64,000 nt of DNA from Xanthomonas tesorieronis (GCF_041245805.1 NZ_CP162490.1:347336-411335); one strand, 5' to 3'. Numbered from the stretch's first letter, positions 1,610 through 55,022 are shown. Program-made: numbers and translations. The notes: generated from the letters alone by a model not told the origin.

Positions 1610-2720
1610 TTGCGGCAACCACGGAACGCCGCGGCGCCTTTTGTAGATACCGTCTTCCGGCCTAACAGGCAATGGCCTTTTGAGGGTCGAAGGGCGTGCG
1701 CGATTTGAGCACGCCGTAGGCGATGTGCAGCAGCTTGCGCATGGCGGCGCAGATGATCTGCTTGTTGGCCTTGCCGCGTTGTCGCATGCGCTGCTTTAGC
1801 GCACGGACGACCGGATTGTGGGTCATGGCGACCAAGGCCGGCAGGAACAGGCCAGCACGCAGGCGCGAGGAGCCAGTGCGGGAGATGCAGACCTGCCCCT
1901 GGCGCTTGCCGGACTCTTGCAGGCGTGGGTTGAGCCCGGCAAAGGCGGTCACCGCCGAAGCGCGGGCGAAGCGGTCCACGTTGCCAAGTTCGGCCAGCAT
2001 CAAGGCCGCGCTGGTGTCGGCGATTCCGTCGATGCTCACCAGCAACTCGCGCTGCCCGCGCAAGGTGGGATCCTGGTCGATATGATCGTCGATGGCCCGT
2101 TCGATCTGCGCGATGCGCGCCTGCAACTGGCCGATGTTCTCCAGGATCGAGTCGCGCACCACCAGTGTAGCCACGTCCAGGCGGTTGCGCTCCATCTGCA
2201 GCATCTGCAGCAGGTCGTCCCGACGCCGCACCAGCGCCTTGAGCTGCTTGAGCGCCGGCGGATCGGGCTGCCAGCGCCGCAGCGACTCCCGGTGACGCAG
2301 GCCATAGCTGGCGATCAGCTTGGCATCGCTGCGGTCGGTCTTGACCCGGGTCAGCTGGCTGCGTGCATACAGCGCCATCTGCGCCGGGTTGAGCACGCAC
2401 ACGCGATAGCCCTCCCCATGGACAAACTCGGCCAGCGCCTCGTGATAGGTGCCGGTGGCTTCCATGACGATCCAGCTGTCCGGCTGCGCATGGGTCCGCA
2501 ACCACGCATGCAGGGCGTGGAAGCCCTTCGGATCGTTGGGTAGCTTGGCCTTGGTGCGGTACTTGCCGTTGGCCAGGTCGATGGCCAGGTCGAAACTGCG
2601 TTTGGCGACGTCGATGCCGACGACTGGGGACATGAGAATTCCTCCGTCGGATGGGGATCACGATCATCGCTGCGCCCGGTCCTGCCTTGTGGATGCGAGT
2701 TCACGCCGAGGGCGGACTCT
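1610..2720 (-). mobile_element. IS110-family insertion sequence; the boundaries are approximate.
   Basis: A single transposase ORF lies between the dcp terminator and the lepB-like gene. IS110 elements lack obvious terminal inverted repeats, so the ends cannot be fixed by eye. Confidence 0.6.
1662..2633 (-). CDS. IS110 family transposase
   Basis: N-terminal MSPVVGIDVAKRSFDLAI motif (DEDD-type transposase N-domain) and C-terminal IS116/IS110/IS902-type domain; 323 aa. Confidence 0.9.
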   Translation of the reverse strand: MSPVVGIDVAKRSFDLAIDLANGKYRTKAKLPNDPKGFHALHAWLRTHAQPDSWIVMEATGTYHEALAEFVHGEGYRVCVLNPAQMALYARSQLTRVKTDRSDAKLIASYGLRHRESLRRWQPDPPALKQLKALVRRRDDLLQMLQMERNRLDVATLVVRDSILENIGQLQARIAQIERAIDDHIDQDPTLRGQRELLVSIDGIADTSAALMLAELGNVDRFARASAVTAFAGLNPRLQESGKRQGQVCISRTGSSRLRAGLFLPALVAMTHNPVVRALKQRMRQRGKANKQIICAAMRKLLHIAYGVLKSRTPFDPQKAIAC

Positions 2721-7820: not shown

Positions 7821-9083
7821 TCAGCGATGGGCGCGGCCCGGGTCCAGCGCGTCGGCGCCGGGCGCCTGCCGCTGCCGGTGGAACCACGCCACCATCGGCG
7901 AGGCCATCAGCGTGGTGACCAGGGTCATTCCGAATAGCAGGGTGAACAGGTCCGGGCCGATCACGCCGCTGTCCAGGCCGATCTTGATCACCACCAGTTC
8001 CATCAGTCCGCGCGCGTTCATCAGCGAGCCCACGGTCAGGCTGTCGCGCCAGTCGTGGCCGCTCAGGCGCGCGCCCAGCGTGCAGCCGACCAGCTTGCCG
8101 AGCACCGCCACGCCGACCACCAGCACGAAGCCGGCGATGCCGGCACCCGCGAACGCGCTGGGGCTGGTGGCCTGGCCGGCGACCGCGAACAGCACCGGCA
8201 TCAGCAAGGTGATCGCCAGCGGTTCGATGCGCCCCGCCAGGTGTTCCAGCAGGCGGTCCTCGCGCGGCAGGCAGATGCCGAACAGGAATGCGCCGAAGAT
8301 GGCATGCAGGCCGATCCACTCGGCCGCGGCAGCGCAGGCCAGCAGGCCGATCAGCACCCAGACCAGGGCGGTCGGCGCATAGCGGCCATCGTGCGCGCGG
8401 GGCTGCAGCAAGCGCGCGAACGCGGGGCGCAGCACGCCGAACACCACTGCGATCAAAACCAGTGCGCCGAGCGCGGTGAAGCCGACGCCGCCGTGCGCAT
8501 TGCCGCCGGTCAGGGTCAGCACCACGGCCAGGAAGATCCACACGGTGGCGTCGTCGATCACCGCCGCGCCCAGCGCCAGGCGGCCGGCCGGCGTGCGGGT
8601 CATGTTGCGGTCCTTGAGGATGCGCGCCAGCACCGGGAACGCGGTGACCGACATCGCCGCGGCGATGAACAGCGCGAACGGCCAGAAGCCGATGCCGTGC
8701 GGCGCGAAGCGCGGGTACAGCCATGGCGCCGCGGCCAGGCCGAGCAGCAACGGCAGCGCGATCCCGGACAGGCCGACCGCCACCGACGAGCGCACCTGCG
8801 CCCTGGTGCCTTCCGGCGCGCGCAGCTCCACGCCGACAATGAACATGAACAGCACGACGCCGAGGTTGGCCAGCCCGGACAGCGGCGGCAGGCTGACAGG
8901 TGCGAACAACGCGCCGTGCAGGTCCGGCAGCCATGCGCCGAACACGATCGGCCCCAGCAGCAAGCCGGCGGCCATCTCGCCGATCACCGGCGGCTGCCCG
9001 ATGCGCTGCAGCAGCACGCCGCACAGGCGCGCCGCGCCCAGGATCACCGCCAACTGCACCAGCAACAGCGTGGTTGGATTCAT
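7821..9083 (-). CDS. Cation:proton antiporter (CPA2/Kef-type Na+/H+ exchanger family)
   Basis: About 12 predicted TM segments. The N-terminus (LLLVQLAVILGAARLCGVLLQRIGQPPVIGEMAAGLLLGP) is typical of CPA2. Confidence 0.85.
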   Translation of the reverse strand: MNPTTLLLVQLAVILGAARLCGVLLQRIGQPPVIGEMAAGLLLGPIVFGAWLPDLHGALFAPVSLPPLSGLANLGVVLFMFIVGVELRAPEGTRAQVRSSVAVGLSGIALPLLLGLAAAPWLYPRFAPHGIGFWPFALFIAAAMSVTAFPVLARILKDRNMTRTPAGRLALGAAVIDDATVWIFLAVVLTLTGGNAHGGVGFTALGALVLIAVVFGVLRPAFARLLQPRAHDGRYAPTALVWVLIGLLACAAAAEWIGLHAIFGAFLFGICLPREDRLLEHLAGRIEPLAITLLMPVLFAVAGQATSPSAFAGAGIAGFVLVVGVAVLGKLVGCTLGARLSGHDWRDSLTVGSLMNARGLMELVVIKIGLDSGVIGPDLFTLLFGMTLVTTLMASPMVAWFHRQRQAPGADALDPGRAHR

Positions 9084-9334
9084 CGCCTCAGCCCTTCCCC
9101 TGGATCGAATCGGCGTGCACGTCAGGACGCGCGCGGTGTGCGCGTTCGTCGCCCCCTCCCCCTGCTGCGCCGGTCGAGCGGACCGAGAGGCGCAGCGTGC
9201 GATCAGTCTATGCCGATCGCCGCGCGCGAGTCAGCCGCTGCGGCGGACCGGGAACCCTGTCTCGGCTTCACGTGGATGCGGGCTGCCTCTGCCGGCCGAA
9301 ACACTGCGCTGCCGATACGCGCCGTAGGCACGGA

Positions 9335-10303
9335 TCAGCGCTCCGACGGCCCGCTCTCGTCGTAGCCGCGCGGGGTGAACAGGTCCGGCTGGATCAGTTC
9401 GATGAAGGCGCGCGCCTGCGGCGACAGGAACTTGCCTTTGCGCACCACCACGCCATAGCTGCGCGTGGGGAAATAGTCGCCGAGCGAGCGCGTGGCCAGC
9501 TTGCCGCGGTCGGCCTCGGTGACGCAGATCGAACTGACGATGGAGATGCCCATGCCCATCGCCACGTATTGCTTGATCACCTCCCAGCCGCCCACTTCCA
9601 GCGCCACGGTGTAAGGCACCCGCGCCTGCTGGAACACCAGGTCGACCAGGCGGTAGGTCACCTGGCGCTTGGGCGGCAGGATCAGCGGATACGGCGACAG
9701 GTCGTGCAGGCTGAGCTTGGGCGTGTTCGCCAGCGGGTGGTCGCGCGGGGCGATCAGTAATTGCTCGAAGCGGTACACCGGCGCATAGCTGAGGTCGGCC
9801 GGCACGTCGAGCATCGAGCCGACCGCCAGGTCCACCGCGTCCTCGCGCAGCAGCTCGGTGCCGTCGGCGCTGATCGCGTTGTGCAGGGTCAGGCGCACGT
9901 CCGGGTGGCGCGCGCGGAAGTTCTCCACGATCTTCGGCAGCAGGTACAGGATGGTGGAACTGTTGGCGGCGATGTTGAGTTCGCCGGCATCCAGCCCGCG
10001 CGCCTTCTCGCGGAAATCGGCCTCCAGCCGGTCCAGGCTTTCCACCAGCGGCTGTGCCATTTCGTACAGCAGTTGGCCCTCGCGGCTGGGGATCAGGCGC
10101 CGCCCGCTGCGCTCCAGCAGGACCACGCCCAGCTCGCGCTCCAGCGCCTGCAGTTGCAGGGTCACCGCCGGCTGGCTGACGAACAGCGCCTCCGCCGCCC
10201 GTGAGACCGAGCCCAGGCGTACGGTCTGGCAGAACGCGCGCAGCGGCTTCAGCCGGTCGGATTTGTAAGGAAAACGCGGAGTTGCGGTGCCGCGCGTGGC
10301 CAT
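9335..10303 (-). CDS. LysR family transcriptional regulator (divergent from aceBA)
   Basis: N-terminal LysR HTH (LRAFCQTVRLGSVSRAAEALFVSQPAVTLQLQALE) and a substrate-binding domain. Confidence 0.85.
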   Translation of the reverse strand: MATRGTATPRFPYKSDRLKPLRAFCQTVRLGSVSRAAEALFVSQPAVTLQLQALERELGVVLLERSGRRLIPSREGQLLYEMAQPLVESLDRLEADFREKARGLDAGELNIAANSSTILYLLPKIVENFRARHPDVRLTLHNAISADGTELLREDAVDLAVGSMLDVPADLSYAPVYRFEQLLIAPRDHPLANTPKLSLHDLSPYPLILPPKRQVTYRLVDLVFQQARVPYTVALEVGGWEVIKQYVAMGMGISIVSSICVTEADRGKLATRSLGDYFPTRSYGVVVRKGKFLSPQARAFIELIQPDLFTPRGYDESGPSER

Positions 10304-10411
10304 GGCGTGACAAATATAAGGTGGACTTATTTAATGCATTGATAAAACTGTATTGTCAAATACATGCCGCGGAAGCACGGTGAGGGCCCGGAAACACCGA
10401 GGAACCCCACC
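10304..10411. promoter_or_regulatory. Divergent lysR/aceB promoter region with a candidate LysR box
   Basis: An AT-rich patch in otherwise GC-rich DNA. TTTAATGCATTGATAAA contains the palindrome AATGCATT in a T-N11-A-like arrangement. Confidence 0.35.
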
Positions 10412-12055
10412 ATGTCCGCCGCCGCCTTCGCCGCTTCATCCCCGTCCGCCGACCGCTCCACCCCCGGCATCACCCTGACCGCCGCCCTGGCCGGCCAGGA
10501 CGCGCTCCTGCCGCCGGCGGCGCTGGCCTTGCTGGTGTCGCTGCACCGGGCGATCGAACCCGAGCGACAGGCGCGGCTGGCAGCACGCCGCGAACGCCAG
10601 GCCTATTTCGATGGCGGCGGCCTGCCCGACTTCCGCGCCGACACCCAGGCGATCCGCGACGGCGACTGGCGTGTGGCGCCGCTGCCGGCCGCGCTGCAGG
10701 ACCGCCGCGTCGAGATCACCGGCCCGACCGATCCGAAGATGGTCATCAACGCGCTGAACTCCGGCGCCAAGGTGTACATGGCCGATTTCGAGGACTCGAC
10801 CGCGCCGACCTGGCGCAACCTGGTCGCCGGGCAGCGCGCGCTGGCCGAGGCGGTGGCTGGCACGCTGACCTTCAGCGCGCCGCCGGCGCGCGACGGCAGC
10901 CCGGGCAAGCGCTACGCGCTCAAGCCCTACGACGAACAGGCGGTGCTGATCGTGCGCCCGCGCGGTTGGCATCTGGACGAGAAGCACGTGCTGGTCGACG
11001 GCCAGCCGCTGGCCGGCGGCCTGTTCGACGCGGCGCTGTTCGCCTTCCACAACGGCCGCGCGCTGCAGGCCAAGGACCGCGGCCCGTACCTGTACCTGCC
11101 CAAGCTGCAATCGATGGAAGAGGCCGCGCTGTGGGAGGCCGCGCTGTCGCACATCGAGGCGATGCTGGGCCTGCCGCAGGGTCAGATCAAGGTCACCGTG
11201 CTGATCGAGACGCTGCCGGCGGTGTTCGAGATGGACGAAATCCTGCATGCGCTGCGCGAGCGCATCGTCGGCCTGAACTGCGGCCGCTGGGACTACATCT
11301 TTTCCTATCTGAAGACCTTCCGCCGCCACCCCGACCGGGTGCTGCCCGAGCGCGGCCAGGTGACCATGACCCAGCCGTTCCTGAAGGCGTATTCGGAACT
11401 GCTGATCCGCACCTGCCACCGCCGCGGCGCGCATGCGATGGGCGGCATGGCCGCGCAGATCCCGATCGGCCACGACGAGGCGGCCAACGAACAGGCGATG
11501 GCGCGGGTGCGCGCGGACAAGCTGCGCGAAGTCACCGCCGGTCACGACGGCACCTGGGTCGCGCATCCGGCGCTGATCCCGATCGCCCGCGCCATCTTCG
11601 ACGAACACATGCGCGCGCCGAATCAGCACGACGTGCGCCGCGAAGACGTGCAGGCCGATCGCGACACGCTGATCGCGCCGTCCGCCGGCACCATTACCCG
11701 CGCCGGCTTCGAGGGCAACATCGAAGTGTGCGTGCGCTACCTGGCGGCGTGGCTGGACGGCAACGGCTGCGTGCCGATCCACCACCTGATGGAAGACGCG
11801 GCCACTGCCGAGATCAGCCGCAGCCAGCTATGGCAGTGGTTGCACGTGGGCGGCCTGCACCTGGACGACGGCACCGCGATCGACTTCGCACTGTTCGACG
11901 CCTGCATGCGCCAGCTGCCGGCGCGCCTGGGCGAACGCGCGCTGCTGCCCGGCGGCACGCGCCTGGACGACGCCATCGCGCTGCTGGACACGCTGACCCG
12001 CAGCGACGAGCTGGCCGAATTCCTGACCTTGCCGGCTTACCAGATGATCGATTGA
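10412..12055 (+). CDS. aceB: Malate synthase A
   Basis: NCGRWDYIFS signature and the overall malate synthase A fold. The start was chosen at MSAAAF. Confidence 0.9.
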   Translation: MSAAAFAASSPSADRSTPGITLTAALAGQDALLPPAALALLVSLHRAIEPERQARLAARRERQAYFDGGGLPDFRADTQAIRDGDWRVAPLPAALQDRRVEITGPTDPKMVINALNSGAKVYMADFEDSTAPTWRNLVAGQRALAEAVAGTLTFSAPPARDGSPGKRYALKPYDEQAVLIVRPRGWHLDEKHVLVDGQPLAGGLFDAALFAFHNGRALQAKDRGPYLYLPKLQSMEEAALWEAALSHIEAMLGLPQGQIKVTVLIETLPAVFEMDEILHALRERIVGLNCGRWDYIFSYLKTFRRHPDRVLPERGQVTMTQPFLKAYSELLIRTCHRRGAHAMGGMAAQIPIGHDEAANEQAMARVRADKLREVTAGHDGTWVAHPALIPIARAIFDEHMRAPNQHDVRREDVQADRDTLIAPSAGTITRAGFEGNIEVCVRYLAAWLDGNGCVPIHHLMEDAATAEISRSQLWQWLHVGGLHLDDGTAIDFALFDACMRQLPARLGERALLPGGTRLDDAIALLDTLTRSDELAEFLTLPAYQMID

Positions 12056-12175
12056 ACGTCGGGATTGGGGAGTCGGGATTGGGGATTCGCAAGAGCGGAT
12101 TTCCATCCTTCCCCCGAGTCGACCGCAACACCTCCACCGTTTCATCGCCGTATCCATTTCCGAGGAGAACGCAAG

Positions 12176-13471
12176 ATGAGCACCACGTTGCAGACCGCCG
12201 AACAGATCCAGCACGCCTGGGATACCGATCCGCGCTGGGCGGGGATCACCCGCAACTACACCGCCGCCGACGTGGTGCGCCTGCGCGGCACCGTGCACGT
12301 GGAGCATTCGCTGGCCCGGCTCGGTGCCGAGAAGCTGTGGAAATACCTGCACGAAAAGGACTTCGTCAACGCGCTGGGCGCGCTGACCGGCAACCAGGCG
12401 ATGCAGCAGGTCAAGGCCGGACTCAATGCGATCTACCTGTCCGGCTGGCAGGTCGCCGCCGATGCCAACCTGGCCGGGCAGATGTATCCGGACCAGTCGC
12501 TGTACCCGGCCGACTCGGTGCCGGCGGTGGTCAAGCGCATCAACAACACGCTGCTGCGCGCCGACCAGCTGCACCACGCCGAAGGCAAGGACGAGATCGA
12601 CTTCCTGCAGCCGATCGTGGCCGATGCCGAGGCCGGTTTCGGCGGCGTGCTCAACGCCTTCGAACTGATGAAGGCGATGATCGAGGCCGGCGCCGCCGGC
12701 GTGCATTTCGAAGACCAGCTGGCCTCGGTGAAGAAGTGCGGGCACATGGGCGGCAAGGTGCTGGTGCCGACCCGCGAGGCGATCGAGAAGCTCAACGCCG
12801 CGCGCCTGGCCGCCGACGTGCTGGGCGTGCCGACCCTGCTGGTCGCGCGCACCGACGCCGAGGCCGCCGATCTGGTGACCAGCGACATCGACGCCAACGA
12901 CCGCCCGTTCACCACCGGCGAGCGCACCGTCGAAGGCTTCTTCAAGACCCGCAAGGGCCTGGACCAGGCGATCAGCCGCGGCCTGGCCTACGCGCCCTAT
13001 GCCGATCTGATCTGGTGCGAGACCGGCAAGCCGGACCTGGAATTCGCGCGCAAGTTCGCCGAGGCGATCCACGCCAAGTTCCCGGGCAAACTGCTGGCCT
13101 ACAACTGCTCGCCGAGCTTCAACTGGAAGAAGAACCTGGACGACGCGACCATCGCCACGTTCCAGAAGGAAATCGCGCGTTACGGCTACAAGTTCCAGTT
13201 CATCACCCTGGCCGGCTTCCACGCGCTGAACTACTCGATGTTCAATCTGGCGCACGGCTATGCGCGCCGGCAGATGAGCGCCTTCGTCGAGTTGCAGGAA
13301 GCCGAGTTCGCCGCCGCCGACCGCGGCTTCACCGCGGTCAAGCACCAGCGCGAGGTCGGCACCGGCTACTTCGACGCGGTGACCCAGGCGATCCAGCAGG
13401 GCCAGTCCTCCACCACCGCACTGAAGGGCTCGACGGAAGAAGAGCAGTTCCACGGCGAAAAGGCCGCCTGA
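12176..13471 (+). CDS. aceA: Isocitrate lyase
   Basis: KKCGHMGGK catalytic motif; 431 aa; start ATG at 12176. Confidence 0.9.
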
Positions 13472-13517
13472 CCTGCAGCCAGGCGTCCATTGCTTGCCGA
13501 TCCCCATGGGAGGGGAG

Positions 13518-13543
13518 AGCCCGGGTTCGCCCGGGCTTTTTTT
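13518..13543 (+). terminator. Rho-independent terminator after aceA
   Basis: GC hairpin AGCCCGGGTTCGCCCGGGCT followed by T7. Confidence 0.7.
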
Positions 13544-13760
13544 GCATGCGCGGTGGCGCGCGTGTCGGCGGCGGTCCTGTGTCTACCAGGTGCGACAGGA
13601 CAGGTGCGGCGTCGCCGTACCGTTCGGCGCCATGCCGATTTCAGGTCCTTTTGCCGTCTCCGCCCGAGCGAGATTGGCTGTGATCCCATCGGCGGCGATG
13701 CGCTCAGATGCTATGCTTTGCGCAAGATGGCGGGCGACGCCAGGAGCAGTAGGGGGCTGG

Positions 13761-14807
13761 ATGAGCTGCGACAGCGCCGCGTCCAATGCACGCGAGACAA
13801 TTCCGACGGTTGCTGTGGTTGCCCCCAAGCCCAATGAGCTGACGGTGCTGACCGCGGCGGAGTTGCGTCTGTTTTCCGAGTTCGGCCGCGCGCGCAGCGT
13901 GCGCGCCGGCGACGTGCTGTTCCGGCGCGGCGACGGCGGCAGCGCCATGTTCGTGATCAGCAGCGGCGTGATCGATCTGGATTTCGGTGAGGACCTGGTC
14001 GTCAAACATCTCGGACACGGCGAATTCTTCGGCGAACTCGGCCTGCTGATCGGCAACCACATGCGCAGCGCCGACGCCATCGCCGCCAGCGACGGAGTGC
14101 TGGTGGAACTGGACCACGACGATTTCCAGCGCCTGGTGGAGCGCGATCCGGGGCTGGTCGCCTACTTCCTGCGCCGTACCATCATGCGCGTGGTGATGAA
14201 CGAACAGACCCTGATCCGCCAGTTGCGCCGCCGCAACCACGACCTGGAAGCGGCGCTGGACAATCTGTACGCCACCACCCACCAGCTCACCCAGACCGAA
14301 GAGCTGGTGCGCACCGACGAGCTGACCGGCCTGCACAACCGCCGCGGGCTGATCCTACGGCTGCAGGAATGCCGCCGCGACGGCCGTTCGCCGGGTCCGG
14401 GCCTGCTGCTGATCGACTGCGACCGCTTCAAGCGCATCAACGACGAGCACGGCCATCTGGTCGGCGACCGCGTGCTGCAGAACGTCGCCAACATCCTGCG
14501 CTCCGTCGCCGGCCAGGACGACATCGCCTGCCGCCTCGGCGGCGACGAATTCTGCCTGCTGGTGTCCACCGGCAACGCCGACGATCTGCGCCGCATCGGC
14601 GAGTTCGTGATCGCCACGGTGCAGAACCTGCTCGGCGTGCCGCACCCGTTGCCGCACATCTGCCCGGTCAGCATCGGCATCAGCCGGGTCGATCCGCAAT
14701 CGGACTGGAACGACTGGTACGCCAATGCCGATGCCGCGCTGTACGAGGCCAAACGTCTCGGTGGCAACCGCTTGTATTGGCACGACCTCGCCTCCGGCTC
14801 GCACTGA
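13761..14807 (+). CDS. cNMP-binding domain plus GGDEF diguanylate cyclase (XC_0249-like)
   Basis: CAP-family cNMP-binding motifs (FGELGLL, RSA) are followed by GGDEF (GLHNRRG, GGDEF). The start at 13761 lies after the aceA terminator; 13698 is an alternative. Confidence 0.8.
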   Translation: MSCDSAASNARETIPTVAVVAPKPNELTVLTAAELRLFSEFGRARSVRAGDVLFRRGDGGSAMFVISSGVIDLDFGEDLVVKHLGHGEFFGELGLLIGNHMRSADAIAASDGVLVELDHDDFQRLVERDPGLVAYFLRRTIMRVVMNEQTLIRQLRRRNHDLEAALDNLYATTHQLTQTEELVRTDELTGLHNRRGLILRLQECRRDGRSPGPGLLLIDCDRFKRINDEHGHLVGDRVLQNVANILRSVAGQDDIACRLGGDEFCLLVSTGNADDLRRIGEFVIATVQNLLGVPHPLPHICPVSIGISRVDPQSDWNDWYANADAALYEAKRLGGNRLYWHDLASGSH

Positions 14808-14833
14808 GCCCACCAAGAACCCTCGAGCTGCCC

Positions 14834-17431
14834 ATGAACGACGTCCACCAGCCGCAGCCCGACGCCCCGCAACTGCGGACGCTGCTGCTGACCGACCTGT
14901 GCGATTCGATGGCGCTGGTGGAACGGCTGGGCGACACCAACGCCGCCGAGCTGTTCAAGCTGCACGACTCGCTGGTGTTGGAACTGCAACAGCGCTGGCG
15001 TGGGCGCCTGATCGACCGTTCCGACGGCCTGCTGTTGCTGTTCGAGCGGCCGATCGACGGCCTCGGTTTCGCCCTGGACTACAGCCGCGGCCTGCGCGAG
15101 TTGGGCGCGCAGCGCAACCTGGAACTGAAAGTGCGCGCCGGCCTGCACGTGGGCGAGGTGCTGACCTGGCGCAACAGCGATGCCGCGGTGCAGGTCGGCG
15201 CCAAGCCGCTGGAAGTGGAGGGCCTAGCCAAGCCGACCGCGGCGCGGCTGATGACCCTGGCCCGGCCCGGGCAGATCCTGCTGTCGGCGGTGGCCGAATC
15301 GCTGACCCACCGCGCCGCGCGCGAACTGGGCGAGCGCGGCGAGCGCCTGCTGTGGAAGTCGCACGGCCGCTGGCGCTTCAAGGGCGTGCCGACGGCGCAG
15401 GAGATCTACGAAGTCGGCGAGATCGGCAACACCCCGTTGCGCGCGCCGAAACCGACGCCGAAGGCATGGCGGGACATCCCGCTGTGGCGGCGTCCGGCGG
15501 CGCTGCTGGCCGAGGCCGGCCTGATCGCCGCGGTCGCGGTCGGCGTCTGGTTCGCCACCCGTCCGCAGCCGGCCATCGCCTTCGCCGAGCGCGACTGGGT
15601 GGTGGTGGGGGATCTGCGCAATCTGACCGGCGACACGCTCTACGACGATACGATCGAGACCGGGCTGCGCATCAGCCTGGAACAGTCGCGCTACGTCAAT
15701 GTGCTGGCCGATGCGCGCGTGCGCGAGGCGCTGAAGATGATGCAGCGCGACCCCGGCGTTGCCGTGGATCGCAAGCTCGGTGCGGAAATCGCCCAGCGCA
15801 CCGGCGCGCGCGCCTTGTTGCTGCCCACCGTTTCCGACGCGGACGGAAAGGTGCGGATCAGCATCGAAGTGGTCGATCCGGCCACGGAAGCCACGGTCGT
15901 CACCGAGTCCGCGACGGCGCGCGGCCCGGGATCGGCGGTGGCGGCGTTGGGCGAGGCCGGCGACTCGTTGCGCAAGGCGTTCGGCGAGAGCGTGGCGTCC
16001 ATCAAGAAGAGTTCGGCTCCGCTGGAGCGGGTAACCACCGACAAGCTCGATGCGCTGCGTGCGTTCTCGCTGGGCCAGAAATCATTTGCGGAGCAGAATC
16101 TGCCAGCGGCGGAAATGCAGTTCAGGCAGGCGCTGAACCTCGACCCGAACTTCGCCATGGCCAAGATCGGCCTGGCGCGCGTGGCCTACAACAAGACCGA
16201 CGTGTTCAGCGCGCAGCAGCAAATGGCCATGGCGATCGGGGATACGGGCAGGCTGACCGACCGCGAACGGCTCTATGCGATGGCGCAGATGGCGCTGTTC
16301 CGATGGGAAAAGGATTATCCCGGCAAGTGGGTCGCCCTGTCGTCCCTGTATCCGGATTATCACGTGGCCGCCTTCAATGTGGCGTCCAGCATGCGCGACG
16401 GTGCACGCTTCAAGGAGATGTTCGAATACAGCGACCGCGCTTCGGCAACGCAGGCCGTTACCCGTCCGGTCGCACTGACTTTCAGGGCGATCGCACGCTC
16501 GGCCTTGGGCAACGTGGCCGAGGCCGAACGCGACTATCTCCAGGCCGAAGCCTTGGGTTACCGCAAGAATTCCGTCGAGTTTTCGCTGATCAAGGCCGCC
16601 GAATCGAAGTTCAAGGAAGCCGACGCGATGTTGCGTCCGGTTCCCGGAGAGCCGCCATTCGCGAAGAACGAGCGCGCCGCCGCGAACCTCAACGTGATGG
16701 CCGATCAAGGCGAGTGGGACAAGGCCGCGCAGCAGGCCGACGCGCTCAGGGCTGCGGTTGCCGATCCGCATACGCCGTTCGAATGGGGCGCGCGGACCTC
16801 CGCGCTGGCGATCATGCGCCATACCTCCGACAGAAAGGCGGTTGTGCGGGAAGCGCAGACGCTGGTGACGCTGGCGGACAACGGCCTGCACAACAGCGCG
16901 GGCCGGGCGCAGGAAGCGGTGGCGAACGCGGCGCTCTATGCGGGCTATGTCGCGGCGTGCGAAGGCGATATCGCCACCGCCCAGCGTGCCTTGAAAGTGG
17001 CCAAGCCGATCGCCGACATCGCCCCCTATCCTCTGCTGAAGAATTCTTCGGCCATCGTCGAGGCCCGGATCGCGATGCGGTCGGGAAAGCCCGACGCAGC
17101 GCTGGAAATCCTGAAACCCTTCGATCAGCCCTGGGCGCTGACCTTGACCAAGGTCGAGCGGCTATCCGCCGAGGCGGCGCTGGGTCGGGATGTGGGCGAG
17201 CAACTCGCCGCCATGAAAACGGTGGCCTGGCGCGGTCGCGTCTATGCCGAATGGGCGGCCGAACGGCCGCCCGTGATCGAATCGCTGTCGTCGCTGCAGC
17301 AACTCAGCGACAAAAAACCACCCAGCCAAGGCTCGCTTCGAACTGCTTCGCCAGAAGGTCCAGATTCGCTTCGATCTCTTCCTTGCTCGGGAGATTCACG
17401 CTCTCGGGCAAAATGCTCGGATCGAGGTTGA
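14834..17431 (+). CDS. Class III nucleotide (adenylate/guanylate) cyclase domain protein with a TM segment and C-terminal TPR-like repeats (XC_0250-like)
   Basis: N-terminal CHD motif LLLTDLCDSMALVERLGD matches the FTDIVGFT box of class III cyclases, followed by a TM helix and TPR-like helical repeats. The frame stays open to 17431 and overlaps the convergent small ORF. Confidence 0.75.
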   Translation: MNDVHQPQPDAPQLRTLLLTDLCDSMALVERLGDTNAAELFKLHDSLVLELQQRWRGRLIDRSDGLLLLFERPIDGLGFALDYSRGLRELGAQRNLELKVRAGLHVGEVLTWRNSDAAVQVGAKPLEVEGLAKPTAARLMTLARPGQILLSAVAESLTHRAARELGERGERLLWKSHGRWRFKGVPTAQEIYEVGEIGNTPLRAPKPTPKAWRDIPLWRRPAALLAEAGLIAAVAVGVWFATRPQPAIAFAERDWVVVGDLRNLTGDTLYDDTIETGLRISLEQSRYVNVLADARVREALKMMQRDPGVAVDRKLGAEIAQRTGARALLLPTVSDADGKVRISIEVVDPATEATVVTESATARGPGSAVAALGEAGDSLRKAFGESVASIKKSSAPLERVTTDKLDALRAFSLGQKSFAEQNLPAAEMQFRQALNLDPNFAMAKIGLARVAYNKTDVFSAQQQMAMAIGDTGRLTDRERLYAMAQMALFRWEKDYPGKWVALSSLYPDYHVAAFNVASSMRDGARFKEMFEYSDRASATQAVTRPVALTFRAIARSALGNVAEAERDYLQAEALGYRKNSVEFSLIKAAESKFKEADAMLRPVPGEPPFAKNERAAANLNVMADQGEWDKAAQQADALRAAVADPHTPFEWGARTSALAIMRHTSDRKAVVREAQTLVTLADNGLHNSAGRAQEAVANAALYAGYVAACEGDIATAQRALKVAKPIADIAPYPLLKNSSAIVEARIAMRSGKPDAALEILKPFDQPWALTLTKVERLSAEAALGRDVGEQLAAMKTVAWRGRVYAEWAAERPPVIESLSSLQQLSDKKPPSQGSLRTASPEGPDSLRSLPCSGDSRSRAKCSDRG

Positions 17432-17540
17432 ATCCATATTCGGCGAACGCCGCGGCAGGATTCTGTTCCATGGCAGCGCGGAAGGCATCGTCGCTGGCGA
17501 GGCGTTGCAGCAGGGACCGTGCATTATCTAGTGTGGTCAT
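17304..17540 (-). CDS. Candidate RiPP precursor peptide (78 aa) with a Nif11/NHLP-like helical leader and a short hydrophobic C-terminus ending GWVVFCR
   Basis: Lies 24 nt downstream of the SagB-type dehydrogenase on the same strand. Its composition is typical of a RiPP leader (LLQRLASDDAFRAAMEQNPAAAFAEYG). Local GC is lower than the flanks. Confidence 0.55.
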   Translation of the reverse strand: MTTLDNARSLLQRLASDDAFRAAMEQNPAAAFAEYGFNLDPSILPESVNLPSKEEIEANLDLLAKQFEASLGWVVFCR

Positions 17541-17564
17541 TTAGTTTGCGCTCGTGGATGGTTT

Positions 17565-18779
17565 TTATTGCCCAAGTGATTGATGCGTCGCGATCAACGG
17601 CTTGGGATTCAAGTGTAGCGTGTTTTTCGTGGCATCAATGTTGCCGACGCCGTTGGCGCCGATCACCATCGTCGTGAGCGGGTCCAGCGACAGCAGCCGG
17701 CCTGCATCGATATCGTTGATGGCGGCCGTATAGAAGGCGCCGAGATCGCGTTCCGTCGCCAGCAGGTAGAACGTCTGGCTCAGGTGGCCGGAGTCCAGCA
17801 GCACCGCCTTGTAGGCCTTGGGGTGACGGCGGTATTTCCAATGGTGCCGATCCAGCCGCGCGACATGGAAGACGAGCGCGCTGGAGTCGGCGAAGTAGGT
17901 TTGTCCGATGGTCAGGTCGGCGGCCAGCGTTCTGGCTTCGGCCTCGGTCAGGTCGATTATCTTGACGAGCCTGTGGGCATCGGATTCGTAGTGATAGAAC
18001 CCCGGCGCCAATCCTTCCACATCGATTATCAAGGGGTATGCCTCGATCGGGTGCAACGACCCGCCGGAAGGGCTGGTGCGGCGTACGGCGACATGACCGG
18101 GTGCGATTTCCTCGGCCCCGATCGCGCCGAACGTACCGAACAGCATGCGCGACAATTCGGTCAGGGCGAGTGGGCGCGTCCGATCGAAATGCCGGGTGGT
18201 GCGCCTGGCAAGCAGGACATCGGCAACGTCGCCTTGCAGCGTTTCGGTGGGAAGCGGGACCGCACCGATCCCGTCCTCGCGCTTCGGGAAATGCGGGGGA
18301 AGCGGGCCATACGTGGCAATGTGCTTGTCCAGCCGCGCGCGCTCGGCCGCATTCCCGTGCTCGCGGCTGCCTTCGTCGCCGACCACGCCCGACCACGCGC
18401 TCATGCGGTGATAGACGCTGGCCAGCGGATGCCACCCCACGGTTTCGAGCGTCGCCTGGCCGGCCAGGATGGCGGCGCTTGTGCTGTCCGGAACGTCGCA
18501 AAGCACGATTTCGTCCGCGATCATCCTGTCGATGAAGGCGGCATCGCAATTGTGCTTTTGCATGACCTCGCCAGCTTCGGTCCAGGAATTCCCCGGAAGC
18601 GAGGCGACGATGGCCAGCGCCTCGGGCGAAAGCGGAATGCGTTTGCCGCTGAGGGGGCACAGCAGGGCGGTGGCGATGCTGGTATCGAGGACGACCGAGC
18701 CGTTGAGCAGCGCGCTGATATTGGGGAAGAGCACATCCCCGATTTCGATGATGCAGTGAAGTCTTCGGCGTAATTTCAT
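17565..18779 (-). CDS. SagB-type (McbC-like, nitroreductase-fold) peptide-maturation dehydrogenase
   Basis: ARRTTRHF (the RxSxRxF box), SPSGGSLHPIEAYPL, and KAVLLDSGHLSQTFYLLATERDLGAF, with an N-terminal extension of about 170 aa. The start was chosen at MKLRRRL; the ORF is open to 18875. Confidence 0.8.
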   Translation of the reverse strand: MKLRRRLHCIIEIGDVLFPNISALLNGSVVLDTSIATALLCPLSGKRIPLSPEALAIVASLPGNSWTEAGEVMQKHNCDAAFIDRMIADEIVLCDVPDSTSAAILAGQATLETVGWHPLASVYHRMSAWSGVVGDEGSREHGNAAERARLDKHIATYGPLPPHFPKREDGIGAVPLPTETLQGDVADVLLARRTTRHFDRTRPLALTELSRMLFGTFGAIGAEEIAPGHVAVRRTSPSGGSLHPIEAYPLIIDVEGLAPGFYHYESDAHRLVKIIDLTEAEARTLAADLTIGQTYFADSSALVFHVARLDRHHWKYRRHPKAYKAVLLDSGHLSQTFYLLATERDLGAFYTAAINDIDAGRLLSLDPLTTMVIGANGVGNIDATKNTLHLNPKPLIATHQSLGQ

Positions 18780-19344
18780 CTGGATGGGTTTGATCGCTGA
18801 CGGTAATGCGGACGAAGTTGACAGACCTGGCGCTGTGTCGCGCGTAAGGGCGGACCGATGACGTATCGTTTCCACCGTTCAAGTCTTGTGCGCTGGCATG
18901 CGATCAGTATGCCGAAGGAAATGGCCGCGGCGTGGCCGTTGCGACAGTTGATCGGCATCCACCCTGGCTTGCCGCACGACCGGCCATCGGGTGCGGGGAC
19001 GAGTGCGCCGGTTTAGGTCCCGGATCGTGTCGCCATGCGGTATCGGAAGCGGGGTGCCCCGCACCGGCCGACGAAGTGGACAGCGCATGCAGCGGGCACG
19101 GATCCGTTGCGCCAAGAGCCGCTGGTGGTCTGCGGCTTCGGTTGGCCGGCGCCGGCGTTGACCACCACGGAGTTAGATCCGACCGATGCGGTGTGGCAGG
19201 CCAGCGACTCCCCATGCTCCGACAAGTACGCGTAGCAGTGGTAAGGCATCTCCCGTCAGCGTCAGCGCGGATGCCGCAGCACTGCGGCTGCGCCGCTGTA
19301 GTCGCGTTGCCGTCTGGCGCTAGTCGCTGCCGTGTTCAGCGGCC

Positions 19345-20151
19345 CTAGCGGTGCGCCGTTGCGGTTGCAGCCGCGGTCGCTTCGTCGGATGCCGCCGATT
19401 TGGCCGGCTTGTCGGTGTGTTCGAGCAGATCCAGGCGCTTGCCGCCCGGCAGCCGGTAGTCCAGTTGCTGCTCCAACGCATCGAGCTCTTTGACCTGCAC
19501 GCACAGCGCGTTGGCCCTGGCTTCCAGCACCTTGCCACGTGCCTCCATGCGCCGCTCCATGTCCTTCTCCATCGCGTCGGCACGTTTATCGATGTCGTCG
19601 GCGCGGCCGGTGAACACCGCGAACATCACCCCGCGGGTCAGCGCGCCGGCCATTTCCTCGGCGGCAGCGCTGACGTCGGCTTCGAACGCCTTGTCGAACG
19701 GTTCCTTCTGCCATTGGCCTTTGCCGAGCGTGCGATCGAGGTGGGCGAGGGCGTCGTCGCGGTGCCGCTCGATCTCGCGCGCCTTGCTGCGGCTGCCGGT
19801 GAGCGCTTCGACCACACCGCCCAAGGCGTCGAAGGTGATGCCGACCACTTCGCGGGCGATGCTTGCCACCTCGGGCATCAGTGTCTGGGCACCCTGTTCC
19901 ATCTGCCGCACGCGTTGGACGTCGGCACTGCTGAGCGGCTGCGCGACCCCGTCCACCTGCAGGCGTCCGTCGTGCAGGAACACGCTCTTCGGGGTGCCGG
20001 CGCTGCGGGTCAGGGCGACGCCGGTCCTGTCGACGATGACGTCGTAAGGCGTGGAGAAGCCGCATTGCTGCGAGGAGAACTGCGGGCCGGCGCTGGCGCT
20101 TGCGGCGGCGCCGAGCAGGGAGAGGGTGCAGACGGAAAGCAGCAGGCGCAT
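19345..20151 (-). CDS. Secreted hypothetical protein (DUF2884/YggN-like)
   Basis: N-terminal signal peptide with a charged, helical periplasmic body; 268 aa. Confidence 0.55.
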   Translation of the reverse strand: MRLLLSVCTLSLLGAAASASAGPQFSSQQCGFSTPYDVIVDRTGVALTRSAGTPKSVFLHDGRLQVDGVAQPLSSADVQRVRQMEQGAQTLMPEVASIAREVVGITFDALGGVVEALTGSRSKAREIERHRDDALAHLDRTLGKGQWQKEPFDKAFEADVSAAAEEMAGALTRGVMFAVFTGRADDIDKRADAMEKDMERRMEARGKVLEARANALCVQVKELDALEQQLDYRLPGGKRLDLLEHTDKPAKSAASDEATAAATATAHR

Positions 20152-20273
20152 GGCGGCGGTTCCTTCAACGATGGCAGCAGCATCGCGGCCCGGCCGTGCC
20201 CTGTCGTCTGCGGGAAGTCAGGGTGCGGGAAGTCATGCCCGCATCGCGGCGCGCCAGCGAGCCCACGCGGGGT

Positions 20274-20783
20274 CTAACCCGGCGGGCTCTCGGGCATTTT
20301 CCAATGCTGGAGCAGCGGGCCGTGCAGGCCGGCGACGGGGTCGCTGGACGGAAACGGCAGCTGGGCGATGCGCTGGATCGCCTCGGCGCTGGGCGCCTGC
20401 CGGCAGACGTCCCAGGCCTGCCCGGCGGGATAGGCGCCGACCACCAGGAAGTCGCTGCTGGAGGCGATGCAGCGATGGCCGGTGCCGGCAGGCAGCAGCA
20501 AGGCGTCGCCGGCCGCCAGCGTGGTGTCGGGGCCGCCCGGGCCGCCGATGACCAGCCGCGCGCTGCCGCTGGCCACGCCAAGCACCTCGTGGGCCGTGGA
20601 GTGGTAGTGGTGGTAATCGTAGATGCCATCGCGCCATTGCGGCGGCCAGCCGTGGGCGGCGAAGCGGCGTTCGAAGCCGGCAGCATCGCTCTCGGCGTCG
20701 GCCTGGCGGTACAGCAGGACCGGCAGGAACGGATGATTGGGGACCCAGTCGTGCGGTGGCAGCAGCCAGTGTTCCAGTTGCAT
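20274..20783 (-). CDS. Cupin domain protein
   Basis: Cupin beta-barrel motifs (GDALLLPAGTGHRC). The upstream part of the longer ORF looks like a non-coding over-extension, and the start is approximate. Confidence 0.5.
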   Translation of the reverse strand: MQLEHWLLPPHDWVPNHPFLPVLLYRQADAESDAAGFERRFAAHGWPPQWRDGIYDYHHYHSTAHEVLGVASGSARLVIGGPGGPDTTLAAGDALLLPAGTGHRCIASSSDFLVVGAYPAGQAWDVCRQAPSAEAIQRIAQLPFPSSDPVAGLHGPLLQHWKMPESPPG

Positions 20784-21000
20784 CGGCGATTCCTCGAGGC
20801 ATGGCGTGGCGGGCGGCGAGTGGCCGCCGTCGCGGATCATGCTAGCCAGGCCGCGTCGCCGCGACGTCATGGCGCGATGCGGCGGCATCGCCACGCTGTA
20901 TTGCGCATGCATCGGCCGATACGGAAGTGCCGAAGCCATCCGCCGGCTTGCGCCACGACCGCGAGCGCTGTCGGGATCGCCCGCGCTGCCGCTATTCGCT

Positions 21001-22623
21001 TCAGTGCAGAGGGGCCGGCCCCGCGTCGACACGATGGTGCGTGCCCAGGTCCCCGACCATGGCGGCGCTGGCGGCGTTCAGTCCCGCCACCTGCACCTGC
21101 GCGCCATGGCGGCGGAACTTCAGCACCACCTTGTCCAGCGCGCCGATGGCGCTGATGTCCCACAGATGCGCCTGCGACAGATCGAGGGTGACCCGCGCTG
21201 GCGCGTGGGCGTAGTCGAACGCGGCGGCGAAGCTGCCGGCCGAGGCGAAGAACAGCTGGCCGCTGATGCGGTAGGTGTGGCCGCCATCGGCGTCCTCGGT
21301 CCTGGCGATATCCAGCATGCGCCCGACCTTGCGCGCGAAGAACAGCGCCGACAGCAGCACGCCGGTCAGCACGCCGCGCGCCAGGTCGTGGGTGGCCACG
21401 GTCACCACCACGGTGGCGAGCATCACCAGGCTGGAGCTCTTCGGATGCGTACGCAGCTGCGCCAGCGAGCGCCAGCTGAAGGTGCCGATCGAGACCATGA
21501 TCATCACCGCCACCAGCGCCGCCATCGGAATCTGTCGCACCCATGGGCCGGCGAACACCACCAGCATCAGCAGCACACTACCGGCGACCAGCGTCGACAG
21601 GCGGCCGCGGCCGCCGGATTTCACGTTGATCACCGACTGCCCGATCATCGCGCAGCCGGCCATGCCGCCGATCAACCCGCTGGCGATGTTGGCCGCGCCC
21701 TGGCCGATGCATTCGCGGTTCTTGCCGCTGGGGGTGTCGGTCATGTCGTCGACGATCTGCGCGGTCATCATCGATTCGAGCAGGCCGACGACCGCCATCG
21801 TCGCCGACACCGGGAACACGATCTTCAGCGTTTCCAGCGTCCGCGGCACGTCAGGCAGCAGGAACGTCGGCAGACTGTCGGGCAACTGGCCCTTGTCGCC
21901 GACGGTGGGCACGGCGATGCCGAAGTACAGCGCCATGCCGGTCAGCAGCACGATCGCCACCAGCGGCGACGGCAGCGCGAGCGTGCGCGTCCAACGATGG
22001 CCGAGCAGCAGGGCCGCGGCACCGACTGCCGCCACGGCATACAGCGCCCGCGTATCGAGGCTGCCGGCGGTCAGCGCGGCGCCGAGCAACAGCAGCCACA
22101 GGCCGAGTCCGGCAAAAGTGCGCTGCGACAGCCATGGCAGGCCGTAGATCACCAGCAGGCCCAGCGCCACCAGCGGGTAGACCGGTGCGGGCACGCCGAT
22201 CAGTTCCGGCAGCTGCGCCATGAAGATCAGGATCGCCAAGGCGTTGACGAAACCGGTGATCACCGAGCGCGACACGAAGCGCATCAGCGCGCCGAGCTTG
22301 AGCAGGCCGGCGCCGATCTGCAGCACACCGGTCAGCAACGTCGCCGCGAGCAGGTACTGCAGGCCGTGTTCCTTGACCAGGCCGACCATCAGCAGCGCCA
22401 TCGCGCCGGTGGCGGCGGAAATCATGCCTGGCCTGCCGCCGACGAAGGCGATCACCACGCAGATGCAGAACGAGGCGTAAAGCCCGACCTTGGGGTCGAC
22501 CCCGGCGATGATGGAGAAGGCGATGGCCTCGGGGATCAGCGCCAGCGCGACGACCAGGCCGGCGAGCACGTCGCCACGGAGGTTGCCGAGCCATTGCTGG
22601 CGCAGCGGGGGATAGAGATTCAC
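21001..22623 (-). CDS. SulP family inorganic anion transporter with a C-terminal STAS domain
   Basis: N-terminal [23 protein letters not shown] SulP signature and a C-terminal STAS domain; 540 aa. Confidence 0.85.
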
Positions 22624-47088: not shown

Positions 47089-47218
47089 AGAGGTACTCCT
47101 TGCCGGGGGACGAAAAAACAGTGTAGCCGCGAACCCGGCCGATCTTCCTGCGCCACGATGAACACCGATCGATCGACGACGCGAAATGGCACGCGGCGCA
47201 AGCCGCCGGCGCGCGCGA

Positions 47219-47827
47219 CTAGCGGGTCGGCTCGGGCGGCTGGAACAGCGCATCGGGTTGCGGGCGGTATTCCACGCGCTGGATGTCCCACTGCTGCTGT
47301 TGTTGCAGGCCGGTCTTGCCGCGATATGCGAGCACCAGGCCGGTGTCGCGATCCAGCCACATCGTGCCCTGCCGGGTCATGCCGGGGCCGCCCGCATTGG
47401 AAAGCCGGTATCGCCACTGCACCGCGGGCCGGCCGGCATGGACGCCGATATCGGCACGTTGGCAGTCGGCGAACATGCCCAGGCCGGCGCACGGCTGTTC
47501 CGGGTCGAAGCGCAGCGGCCAGCGCATGCCGGGCACCGGCATGCCGTCGCCCTGCTGTCCCACGATCCAGCCAACGGGTGCGTCCTTGGTCAGGATCAAC
47601 GCGTACGGCGTACCGCTGGCGTCCTTGAACTGCACGCGCAGCGCATCGTCGCGGAAATACAGGGTCACCGGCTGCGGCGCGTCCTTGGGGCGGATCCGGC
47701 TCAATCCGCTCAGCTGGTTGGTCGTCACCTCGGCCACGCCGGAGAACGGAAACTCCTCGGCGCGCGTGCTTTGCGCAAGCGCAGGGGAGATCGCGAGCGC
47801 ACATGCCAGCACCGAACGCCAAAGCAT
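47219..47827 (-). CDS. Secreted hypothetical protein (last gene of the Tad-like operon)
   Basis: Signal peptide MLWRSVLACALAISPALA. The start overlaps the upstream stop (TGATG). Confidence 0.5.
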   Translation of the reverse strand: MLWRSVLACALAISPALAQSTRAEEFPFSGVAEVTTNQLSGLSRIRPKDAPQPVTLYFRDDALRVQFKDASGTPYALILTKDAPVGWIVGQQGDGMPVPGMRWPLRFDPEQPCAGLGMFADCQRADIGVHAGRPAVQWRYRLSNAGGPGMTRQGTMWLDRDTGLVLAYRGKTGLQQQQQWDIQRVEYRPQPDALFQPPEPTR

Positions 47828-52361: not shown

Positions 52362-52374
52362 TACGTGGGGTGGA

Positions 52375-54785: not shown

Positions 54786-54827
54786 GAAGAGTTGCCGTCG
54801 AGGCAGGCCGTGGCGAGGGAATGGAGG

Positions 54828-55022
54828 TCAACCCACCAGGATGTCGGACGCCGAGATGGCGTAGACAAAGGCGGCATAGAGGTCTTTCAGGGCGGTGACC
54901 ACGTCGGTGATCACGTTCGGGTTGGCGATCAACACGATCACCAGCGCCATCACCACCACGGTGTATTCGATCGTGGATTGACCGCGTTGGGTGCGCTTGC
55001 GGGGCATGGCGGCGCGGATCAT
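54828..55022 (-). CDS. Small Flp-motif protein (64 aa, candidate minor pilin or pseudopilin)
   Basis: QRG/QSTIEYTVVVMALVIV matches the G-x4-EY Flp/TadE processing motif followed by a hydrophobic helix. ATGA overlap with the upstream gene. Confidence 0.5.
   Translation of the reverse strand: MIRAAMPRKRTQRGQSTIEYTVVVMALVIVLIANPNVITDVVTALKDLYAAFVYAISASDILVG

Follow-up and report, generated by a model that had tools for sequence, protein, structure and literature searches.

Organization of the locus

We analyzed a 64,000-nucleotide stretch of the Xanthomonas tesorieronis genome (GCF_041245805.1, NZ_CP162490.1:347336-411335), hereafter the window, for a locus in which the gene for a small precursor-like peptide lies between genes for a SagB-type flavin mononucleotide (FMN) dehydrogenase and a putative receptor cyclase. 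The sensor half of this cyclase forms one cassette with the peptide and the dehydrogenase that is inherited as a unit, diverges as a unit and is exchanged independently of the catalytic half of the cyclase and of a neighboring GGDEF gene. A sequence-only reading of the window had treated the peptide and dehydrogenase genes as a stand-alone two-gene module. This view did not hold, as the convergent cyclase is the third curated member of the same system, scoring 944.3 bits on the TIGR04510 model ‘putative peptide modification system cyclase’ (cut-off 400), and it adjoins the pair in 21 of 22 loci.

The peptide gene (17304..17540, minus strand; positions are counted from the first nucleotide of the window) was defined by translation of the open reading frame (ORF) and by profile score, and encodes 78 amino acids from an ATG start. 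It follows the dehydrogenase gene (17565..18779) on the same strand after a gap of 24 nt (17541-17564), and both ORFs were found where the sequence-only reading had placed them. The cyclase gene (14834..17431, plus strand), whose product starts with MNDVHQ, converges on the peptide gene, and the two overlap tail to tail by 128 nt (17304-17431). Because this junction leaves little or no room for a terminator, convergent transcription could cause antisense interference between the receptor and ligand genes. Directly upstream of the cyclase gene and on the same strand, a gene at 13761..14807 encodes a 348-aa protein with a cyclic nucleotide monophosphate (cNMP)-binding domain and a GGDEF diguanylate cyclase domain; its start codon, the ATG at 13761, was checked. 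Upstream of the dehydrogenase gene is a 565-nt non-coding spacer (18780-19344) that is part of the exchanged cassette. Rfam gave no matches in positions 13000-20500, including the spacer, and scans for promoters and terminators found nothing above chance, with no consensus sigma-70 promoter in the spacer.

The peptide scored 53.6 bits over residues 3-76 on TIGR04509 ‘NHLP-related RiPP peptide’ (cut-off 34) and is a member of this family of ribosomally synthesized and post-translationally modified peptides (RiPPs), which upholds the earlier description of its leader as NHLP-like. On the NHLP leader model TIGR03793 itself, the peptide scored 17.1 bits, below the cut-off of 50.9, and is not a member. 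The leader is helical and NHLP-related (LLQRLASDDAFRA...NPAAAFAEYGF...LPSKEEI...), has the signature L-x-x-L-A-x-D-D-x-F-R with a distant kinship to NHLP and Os1348-type models, and forms most of the peptide and its best-conserved part in the family alignment. It resembles NHLP/Nif11 leaders (TIGR03793 and relatives) in being long and helical, but the window differs from those systems in having no Gly-Gly site and no C39 peptidase-ABC exporter. The tail is short and hydrophobic (ASLGWVVFCR, ~17307-17339). Tails differed across loci and included GWVVFCR, TWVIFMR, GIIVFKA, VVKVFHI, VIVMFQI and SFLPFKC, among others. In the subtype to which the window belongs, the best-kept tail feature was a hydrophobic run ending in Phe (His in locus L018), with the run-ending residue three residues from the C-terminus, or four in locus L019.

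A word-indexed protein search with the 78-aa peptide returned five relatives and an exhaustive search with a hidden Markov model (HMM) found more, with 468 representative proteins sharing the leader when the HMM was built from the peptide. We also observed that a leader of the form L-x-R-L-A-x-D-D-x-F-R...L-P-S-K-E-E starts hundreds of other small proteins (P0141, P0144, P0200 and many of P0131-P0280 in our set), which end in longer hydrophobic or W-x-G-F-x-G-type C-termini; a few of these have two leader copies.

The peptide ORF is a real gene. That it might be an antisense artefact of the cyclase gene, an alternative raised by the sequence-only reading, was ruled out: the peptide stands beside the dehydrogenase in 22 of 22 loci, dN/dS between orthologues was 0.11-0.35 in pairs with unsaturated dS, indicative of purifying selection, and many loci lack the overlap. 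The junction between the peptide and cyclase ORFs varied between loci from a 115-nt gap to a 257-nt overlap; since its length is so variable, the reading frame of the peptide is independent of that of the cyclase. Two loci, L009 (9700-11016) and L012 (9733-11135), had four nearly identical copies of the peptide gene in tandem, placed between those for the dehydrogenase and the cyclase, and the encoded peptides have a longer N-terminal extension (MFDFDIQN...).

On TIGR04511 ‘putative peptide maturation dehydrogenase’ (cut-off 240), the dehydrogenase scored 303.3 bits in an alignment that spans positions 9-380 of the 380 in the model. The sequence-only reading was right that the pair belongs to uncharacterized TIGRFAM families, which are TIGR04509 and TIGR04511, and mistaken in assigning TIGR04510, the model of the adjacent cyclase, to the dehydrogenase. 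Its identification of a SagB/McbC-type enzyme was borne out by a score of 101.5 bits on the SagB domain model TIGR03605 (cut-off 78.4), an E value of 1.6e-12 for the Pfam Nitroreductase family and structural matches to ThcOx and McbC. The ORF reaches a GTG at 18875 (436 aa). Since homologues are 396-404 aa long and their alignment begins at residue 33 of this ORF, the true start is most likely the ATG at 18779, giving a protein of 404 aa, whose residues we number here.

An AlphaFold2 model of the dehydrogenase, made from 74 homologues with 40-89% identity to the window protein, had a pLDDT (predicted local distance difference test) score of 93.4. In this model, the N-terminal domain (residues 1-92; 18504..18779) consists of strands followed by three helices and adopts the fold of a RiPP recognition element (RRE), a PqqD-like winged helix whose sheet and three helices match those of known RREs. 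A helical linker (residues 93-180; 18240-18503) connects it to a C-terminal half with a nitroreductase fold, for which the top folds in the PDB by model comparison were ThcOx, BmdC, 3eo7 and McbC. R192/T194/R196 of an R-x-T-x-R motif, S236/S238/G240 of an SPSGG motif, and W314-K315-Y316 (17832..17840) were invariant in the 74 homologues. The last of these motifs aligns with FWKY of ThcOx, which we take to be the Lys-Tyr motif required by azoline dehydrogenases. The FMN nitroreductase fold and the R-x-T-x-R, SPSGG and W-K-Y motifs are shared with SagB, McbC, BcerB and ThcOx, and ThcOx likewise has an RRE-type domain N-terminal to its oxidase domain, at an identity to the window enzyme of ~20%. 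Score, motifs and fold thus place the protein among the SagB-family flavin enzymes, and it is predicted to oxidize a peptide. We considered whether its N-terminus (M-x-x-R-R-R) is a twin-arginine translocation signal and dropped this reading because no hydrophobic stretch follows and the residues are confidently modeled as RRE strands. In locus L025 (4652-5847), from an X. campestris Logan assembly, two separate ORFs of 181 and 192 aa encode the dehydrogenase, reflecting a frameshift pseudogene or an assembly error.

The enzymes that accompany azoline dehydrogenases were not found. A Pfam scan of ~50 ORFs in the window, a few of which matched no family, detected no YcaO, ThiF/E1-like or C39-ABC proteins, in agreement with the earlier classification of the locus as outside the standard thiazole/oxazole-modified microcin (TOMM) type. 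There was likewise no YcaO or E1-like cyclodehydratase in the window and the 31 loci, nor among the conserved neighbors in 24 loci. With no such protein and with a core that lacks conserved heterocyclizable residues, a standard TOMM cluster was ruled out, and the window and 31 loci differ from azoline dehydrogenase systems both in lacking a cyclodehydratase and in having no conserved Cys, Ser or Thr in the tail. Azole formation is unlikely because no cyclodehydratase is present. The sequence-only reading had argued for another chemistry from the single Cys of the peptide, an argument that failed on comparison with homologues: the tail Cys is absent or displaced in many of them, and the penultimate position is occupied by Cys, Met, Lys, His, Gln or Arg, which rules out this Cys as a conserved reactive residue.

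By analogy, the most likely reaction would be a two-electron dehydrogenation (-2 Da), such as C-alpha/C-beta desaturation, and not azole formation. The cyclic dipeptide oxidase AlbA/AlbB of albonoursin biosynthesis, a flavoenzyme with the nitroreductase fold, desaturates Phe or Leu residues between C-alpha and C-beta. It offers a precedent for a -2 Da change without an azoline, although it acts on a diketopiperazine rather than on a peptide with a leader.

Relationship to the cGMP pathway of X. campestris

The cyclase consists of a class III nucleotidyl cyclase catalytic domain (14834..15493), a single predicted transmembrane helix (15494..15556) and a sensor region made of a juxtamembrane domain and tetratricopeptide repeats (TPRs), identified by TPR matches (15557..17431). 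The helix, ALLAEAGLIAAVAVGVWFA, was the only segment with a mean Kyte-Doolittle score above 1.6 in a 19-residue window (2.04), and a basic flank (KAWRDIPLWRR) lies N-terminal to it. Because the cyclase domain must be cytoplasmic, the ~620-aa juxtamembrane and TPR region is predicted to be periplasmic (N-in, C-out). A sequence search with the sensor region against the PDB returned generic TPR matches only.

The catalytic domain is 80% identical to that of an 886-aa protein of X. campestris and also matches class III cyclases in the PDB. The cyclase of X. campestris pv. raphani (locus L024) has 886 aa, the length of XC_0250, with D41, D71, L73, A150, L157 and A161 at their published numbers. D71, L73, A150, L157 and A161 are identical in the window cyclase, and D41 is aligned to an Asp. 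In the window GGDEF protein, the cNMP-binding domain matched PDB entry 5h5o (E=2e-46), the GGDEF domain matched structures of its kind and has the motif RLGGDEF, and the Asn-Glu cyclic GMP (cGMP) diad is kept as VMNEQ. Entry 5h5o and the X. campestris pv. raphani GGDEF protein (L024 and L026) have 100% identity over 125 aa, and the L024 protein has N145/E146, as does XC_0249. The window cyclase and cNMP-GGDEF genes are orthologues of XC_0250 and XC_0249.

This orthology connects the locus to a characterized signaling pathway. In X. campestris 8004, residues 1-220 of XC_0250 make cGMP from GTP in vitro, XC_0250 is needed for cellular cGMP, XC_0249 binds cGMP through its N145/E146 diad and makes cyclic di-GMP (c-di-GMP), and the pathway affects biofilm formation and virulence (An et al. 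2013, EMBO J, PMC3770947). From the 80% identity, the window catalytic domain is predicted to be a guanylate cyclase that makes cGMP. That study treats the pathway as consisting of two genes and mentions no peptide, dehydrogenase or ligand of the TPR region (PMC3770947). We found that the cyclase gene in X. campestris is followed by genes for a TIGR04509 peptide (101-112 aa; 85-114 bits) and a TIGR04511 dehydrogenase (485-561 bits), so the characterized locus holds the same four-gene module.

The window shares with the XC_0250/XC_0249 pathway the gene pair and its order, the chromosomal site next to aceB-aceA, the catalytic residues and the Asn-Glu diad, and differs in its sensor domain, which is only ~35% identical to the X. 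campestris 886-aa type. As a form of the TIGR04509/04510/04511 system, it has the same trio with all three proteins above cut-offs, and its close relatives are annotated with these family names. Relative to the X. campestris type of trio, the window peptide is shorter (78 versus 101-112 aa) and ends two residues past the hydrophobic run, the dehydrogenase gene is co-directional with the peptide gene whereas theirs is divergent from it, and the model scores are about half (53.6 versus 85-114 bits for the peptide, and 303 versus 485-561 bits for the dehydrogenase). The locus is therefore a divergent member of a catalogued and functionally uncharacterized system. Our literature searches on the TIGR numbers and family names found nothing relevant on a product or function for this system, as the sequence-only reading had supposed.

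Exchange of sensor, peptide and dehydrogenase as one cassette

To compare the locus across genomes, we used 22 loci obtained from a genome scan with the dehydrogenase and a second set of eight Xanthomonas loci anchored on the cyclase. The 22 loci span Lysobacterales, Burkholderiales and one myxobacterium; they came from Xanthomonas, Lysobacter and relatives, Rhodanobacteraceae, two metagenome-assembled genomes (MAGs) of Burkholderiales, the MAG of an uncultured betaproteobacterium, and Pyxidicoccus. The peptide gene was present downstream of the dehydrogenase in 22/22 of these (21 located by tblastn and one by ORF inspection), the convergent cyclase in 21/22 and the GGDEF gene in 15/22. All eight cyclase-anchored loci contained both the peptide and the dehydrogenase. 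Two classes of gene order were observed, dehydrogenase and peptide facing the cyclase as in the window (DH> pep> <CYC) and the arrangement of X. campestris (CYC> <pep DH>), and in both classes the peptide gene was always tail to tail with the cyclase. One Tahibacter MAG (L011, ~8000-17040) contained two complete dehydrogenase-peptide-cyclase cassettes adjoining one another, one of each order class.

Clustering of ORFs across 24 loci gave only housekeeping neighbors (aceB, aceA, LysR and ComM/YifB). An S9 peptidase gene beside the dehydrogenase in L023 and L026-L030 was considered as a linked protease and rejected, as the window has no such gene and, where present, it falls beyond the border of the variable cassette. 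This peptidase was called in L026 (12374-14467) and not in L024 (12419-14621), where the DNA is ~98% identical; it may be a pseudogene in L024. Farther away in the window are an IS110-family transposase gene (DEDD_Tnp_IS110 and Transposase_20; 1662-2633, minus strand) and a Tad/Flp pilus cluster (~47200-58850, minus strand) encoding TadE-like, TadB/TadC, secretin, RcpC and TadG-like proteins along with a CpaF-type ATPase with an N-terminal FHA domain.

The two halves of the cyclase gene had different patterns of divergence. Among 23 Xanthomonas cyclases, catalytic domains tracked species, with 88-100% identity within group 2, and the regions after the transmembrane helix formed discrete types that were 31-58% identical to one another. 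Pairs of strains from the same species made this division evident. Between L024 and L026, both pv. raphani, identity was 100% for the GGDEF protein and 100% for the catalytic domain, and fell to 40% for the sensor, 37% for the peptide and 43% for the dehydrogenase. Corresponding values were 99, 99, 43, 37 and 48% for two X. euroxanthea loci (L028 and L029), and 99, 96, 38, 39 and 34% for the window and Xanthomonas sp. GW (L031). Like cassette types were found across species, with identities for sensor, peptide and dehydrogenase of 82, 75 and 78% between L024 and L029 and of 82, 79 and 81% between L026 and L030. Cassettes differ between conspecific strains, with several types present in a single species and also shared between species.

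The borders of the exchanged DNA were visible at the nucleotide level. In a blastn comparison of the window with L031, homology was confined to 9861-15897 and 19399-22543; these flanks were 92-93% identical, and no homology was detected in the cassette between them (15898..19398), which comprises the TPR part of the cyclase, the peptide, the dehydrogenase and the 565-nt spacer. Three independent pairs gave the same picture, with flanks 92-98% identical and essentially no identity across the cassette, which spans 15898-19398 in the window, 9092-12419 in L024 and 5899-9349 in L028. In all three pairs, the left breakpoint fell within the cyclase gene, after its catalytic domain, and the right one was just past the dehydrogenase. 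Base composition followed these borders. In the window, GC content at third codon positions (GC3) fell from 0.92 in the catalytic domain to 0.80 in the sensor, 0.66 in the peptide and 0.79 in the dehydrogenase, and flanking genes had values of 0.85-0.91. Over the window, L024, L026 and L031, GC3 was 0.60-0.80 in the cassette versus 0.81-0.94 in the catalytic half and flanks, and the drop fell at the cassette borders.

Correlations between pairwise identities over 19 loci separated the same two units. GGDEF and catalytic domains were correlated at r=0.92, and the cassette parts were correlated with each other at 0.86 (sensor-dehydrogenase), 0.89 (sensor-peptide) and 0.85 (dehydrogenase-peptide), with cross terms of 0.15-0.41. 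A partial Mantel correlation of 0.87 between sensor and dehydrogenase, controlled for the catalytic domain and GGDEF protein, was reached by 0 of 2000 permutations. Peptide, maturase and sensor domain thus co-diversify into discrete types within species, as is expected of pherotypes.

A candidate peptide ligand for a receptor guanylate cyclase

These findings suggest a model in which the pair provides the peptide and its maturase to a four-gene signaling module composed of a cNMP-GGDEF effector, a receptor guanylate cyclase, the peptide and the SagB-type dehydrogenase. The RRE of the dehydrogenase would dock the NHLP-like leader, and the FMN domain would oxidize the short hydrophobic C-terminal tail. 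By an unlinked route, the matured peptide would then reach its cognate cyclase at the TPR domain, which is predicted to be periplasmic, and its binding there would set cGMP output and, via the GGDEF protein, influence c-di-GMP, biofilm formation and virulence, with the discrete cassette types acting like pherotypes. Modification of the peptide, its export and its binding to the TPR domain are steps that we infer. We give about an even chance to the proposal that the matured peptide is the cognate, pherotype-like ligand of the receptor guanylate cyclase. The more specific and general form of this proposal is that, across the Xanthomonas/Lysobacter group, a ribosomal peptide matured through non-azole chemistry by an RRE-bearing SagB-type dehydrogenase is the specific ligand of a single-pass receptor guanylate cyclase, with cassettes as pherotypes that gate a cGMP-to-c-di-GMP virulence and biofilm pathway; we hold it more tentatively, as a possibility that falls somewhat short of even.

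Several observations weigh against the ligand model. No modification of the peptide has been observed so far, no Cys, Ser or Thr column is kept in the tail across homologues, and none of the conserved tail residues is obviously oxidizable except a Phe. The peptide has no signal peptide, the alignment has no GG/GA cleavage motif before the tail, and neither ORF clustering nor the Pfam scan of the window found a conserved exporter, protease or immunity gene in any locus. This lack of a conserved exporter or protease leaves delivery to a periplasmic domain unexplained. The placing of the TPR region in the periplasm depends in turn on one predicted transmembrane helix. XC_0250 activity was reported for the isolated catalytic domain in a paper that is silent on a peptide (PMC3770947). 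The GGDEF partner is missing from three Burkholderiales loci, and the Pyxidicoccus sp. locus (L015, 7896-9417) has a dehydrogenase and peptide without a cyclase. Last, because the three co-varying parts adjoin one another, their replacement as a block would by itself make them co-vary without a direct interaction. Beside the Pyxidicoccus pair, we noted genes for an FBA/NAGPA-domain protein and a Kelch-repeat protein.

The Pyxidicoccus locus is what would be expected if the pair were a self-contained RiPP module with a secreted product, such as an antimicrobial or a metallophore, and the cyclase a mere neighbor. The RRE and an FMN domain with intact motifs point to a genuine peptide-modifying enzyme in this case as well, and tandem precursor copies, as in L009 and L012, are typical of RiPP products. 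We nevertheless regard this explanation as unlikely, since the cyclase is adjacent and tail to tail in 21/22 and 8/8 loci and in both order classes, the sensor domain co-diverges with the pair and the catalytic domain does not, and genes for immunity, export and proteolysis are not conserved.

The lack of export machinery and of a conserved modifiable residue in the tail, together with a leader that is most of the peptide and its best-conserved part, could also indicate that the peptide is never modified. It would then be a small folded partner bound via the RRE, with the flavoprotein sensing a redox state or metabolite and the complex or freed peptide modulating the cyclase close to the membrane. 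Such a role seems to us equally improbable. The invariance of the FMN and Lys-Tyr residues in the 74 homologues speaks for an enzyme that acts on a substrate, a set of four tandem peptide genes suits precursors better than a stoichiometric partner, and variation in the cyclase extends to the distal TPR region and is not confined to its membrane-proximal part.

It is also rather doubtful, and by a little more so, that the co-variation reflects hitch-hiking only, with a contiguous block replaced horizontally and no relation of ligand to receptor. The three parts do adjoin in every locus, and the distinct GC3 of the cassette is as expected for imported DNA. However, their adjacency is kept across bacterial orders and has survived an inversion of the dehydrogenase gene. 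In three independent species pairs, the left breakpoint each time falls within the cyclase gene, past the catalytic domain. The types also persist across species at 75-82% identity with several per species, a pattern typical of specificity alleles that are maintained.

The family name ‘peptide modification system cyclase’ implies yet another role, in which the cyclase itself tailors the peptide, for instance by nucleotidylating it, or is regulated by the peptide in the cytoplasm and is not a signal receptor; curated co-occurrence of the three genes would fit this role, and class III cyclase folds are able to catalyze other nucleotidyl transfers. We consider it very improbable because the XC_0250 domain makes cGMP in vitro and a dedicated cGMP receptor is encoded beside it (PMC3770947), the catalytic domain evolves with the GGDEF protein (r=0.92) and not with the peptide (r=0.24), and the XC_0250 catalytic residues are kept in the window (five identical, D41 aligned to Asp).

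The ligand model has counterparts among known systems. Staphylococcal agr, Bacillus ComQXP and streptococcal ComCD are polymorphic peptide-pheromone/receptor cassettes in which, as in our loci, peptide, maturase and sensor diverge together and the output domain is conserved. These systems have a histidine kinase output; here the output would be a guanylate cyclase and the maturase a flavin dehydrogenase, and secretion and sensing of the peptide are proposed by analogy. Animal receptor guanylyl cyclases are activated by peptides, NPR-A by ANP and GC-C by guanylin and heat-stable enterotoxin. The logic proposed for the Xanthomonas cyclase would be similar, purely as an analogy, with a single-pass protein joining an extracellular peptide-binding domain to an intracellular class III cyclase that makes cGMP. 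The animal receptors differ in having an unrelated, periplasmic-binding-protein-like ligand domain in place of TPRs, and the catalytic domain of the window cyclase is N-terminal, in the opposite orientation.

What is new here is the link of this system to a characterized cGMP pathway and its pherotype-like cassette structure. Our literature searches, which included XC_0251/XC_0252 and the combination of RiPP, guanylate cyclase and Xanthomonas, found no earlier link to the cGMP pathway and no report of pherotype-like cassettes. If the ligand model were refuted, the pair would stay an ordinary member of an annotated family. The input signal of XC_0250/XC_0249, which control biofilm formation and virulence, has been an open question since 2013, and our results suggest that the peptide is the missing signal of the Xanthomonas cGMP pathway. 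A sensor half that is swapped together with a peptide and dehydrogenase offers a concrete and genetically testable candidate. As far as our literature searches go, the Xanthomonas cyclase, if the model is true, would be the first peptide-ligand receptor guanylate cyclase known in bacteria. The dehydrogenase would then add a new non-azole reaction to those of SagB-type enzymes. These plant pathogens would have a strain-specific, pherotype-like layer of communication, with possible use in strain typing and in interference with virulence.

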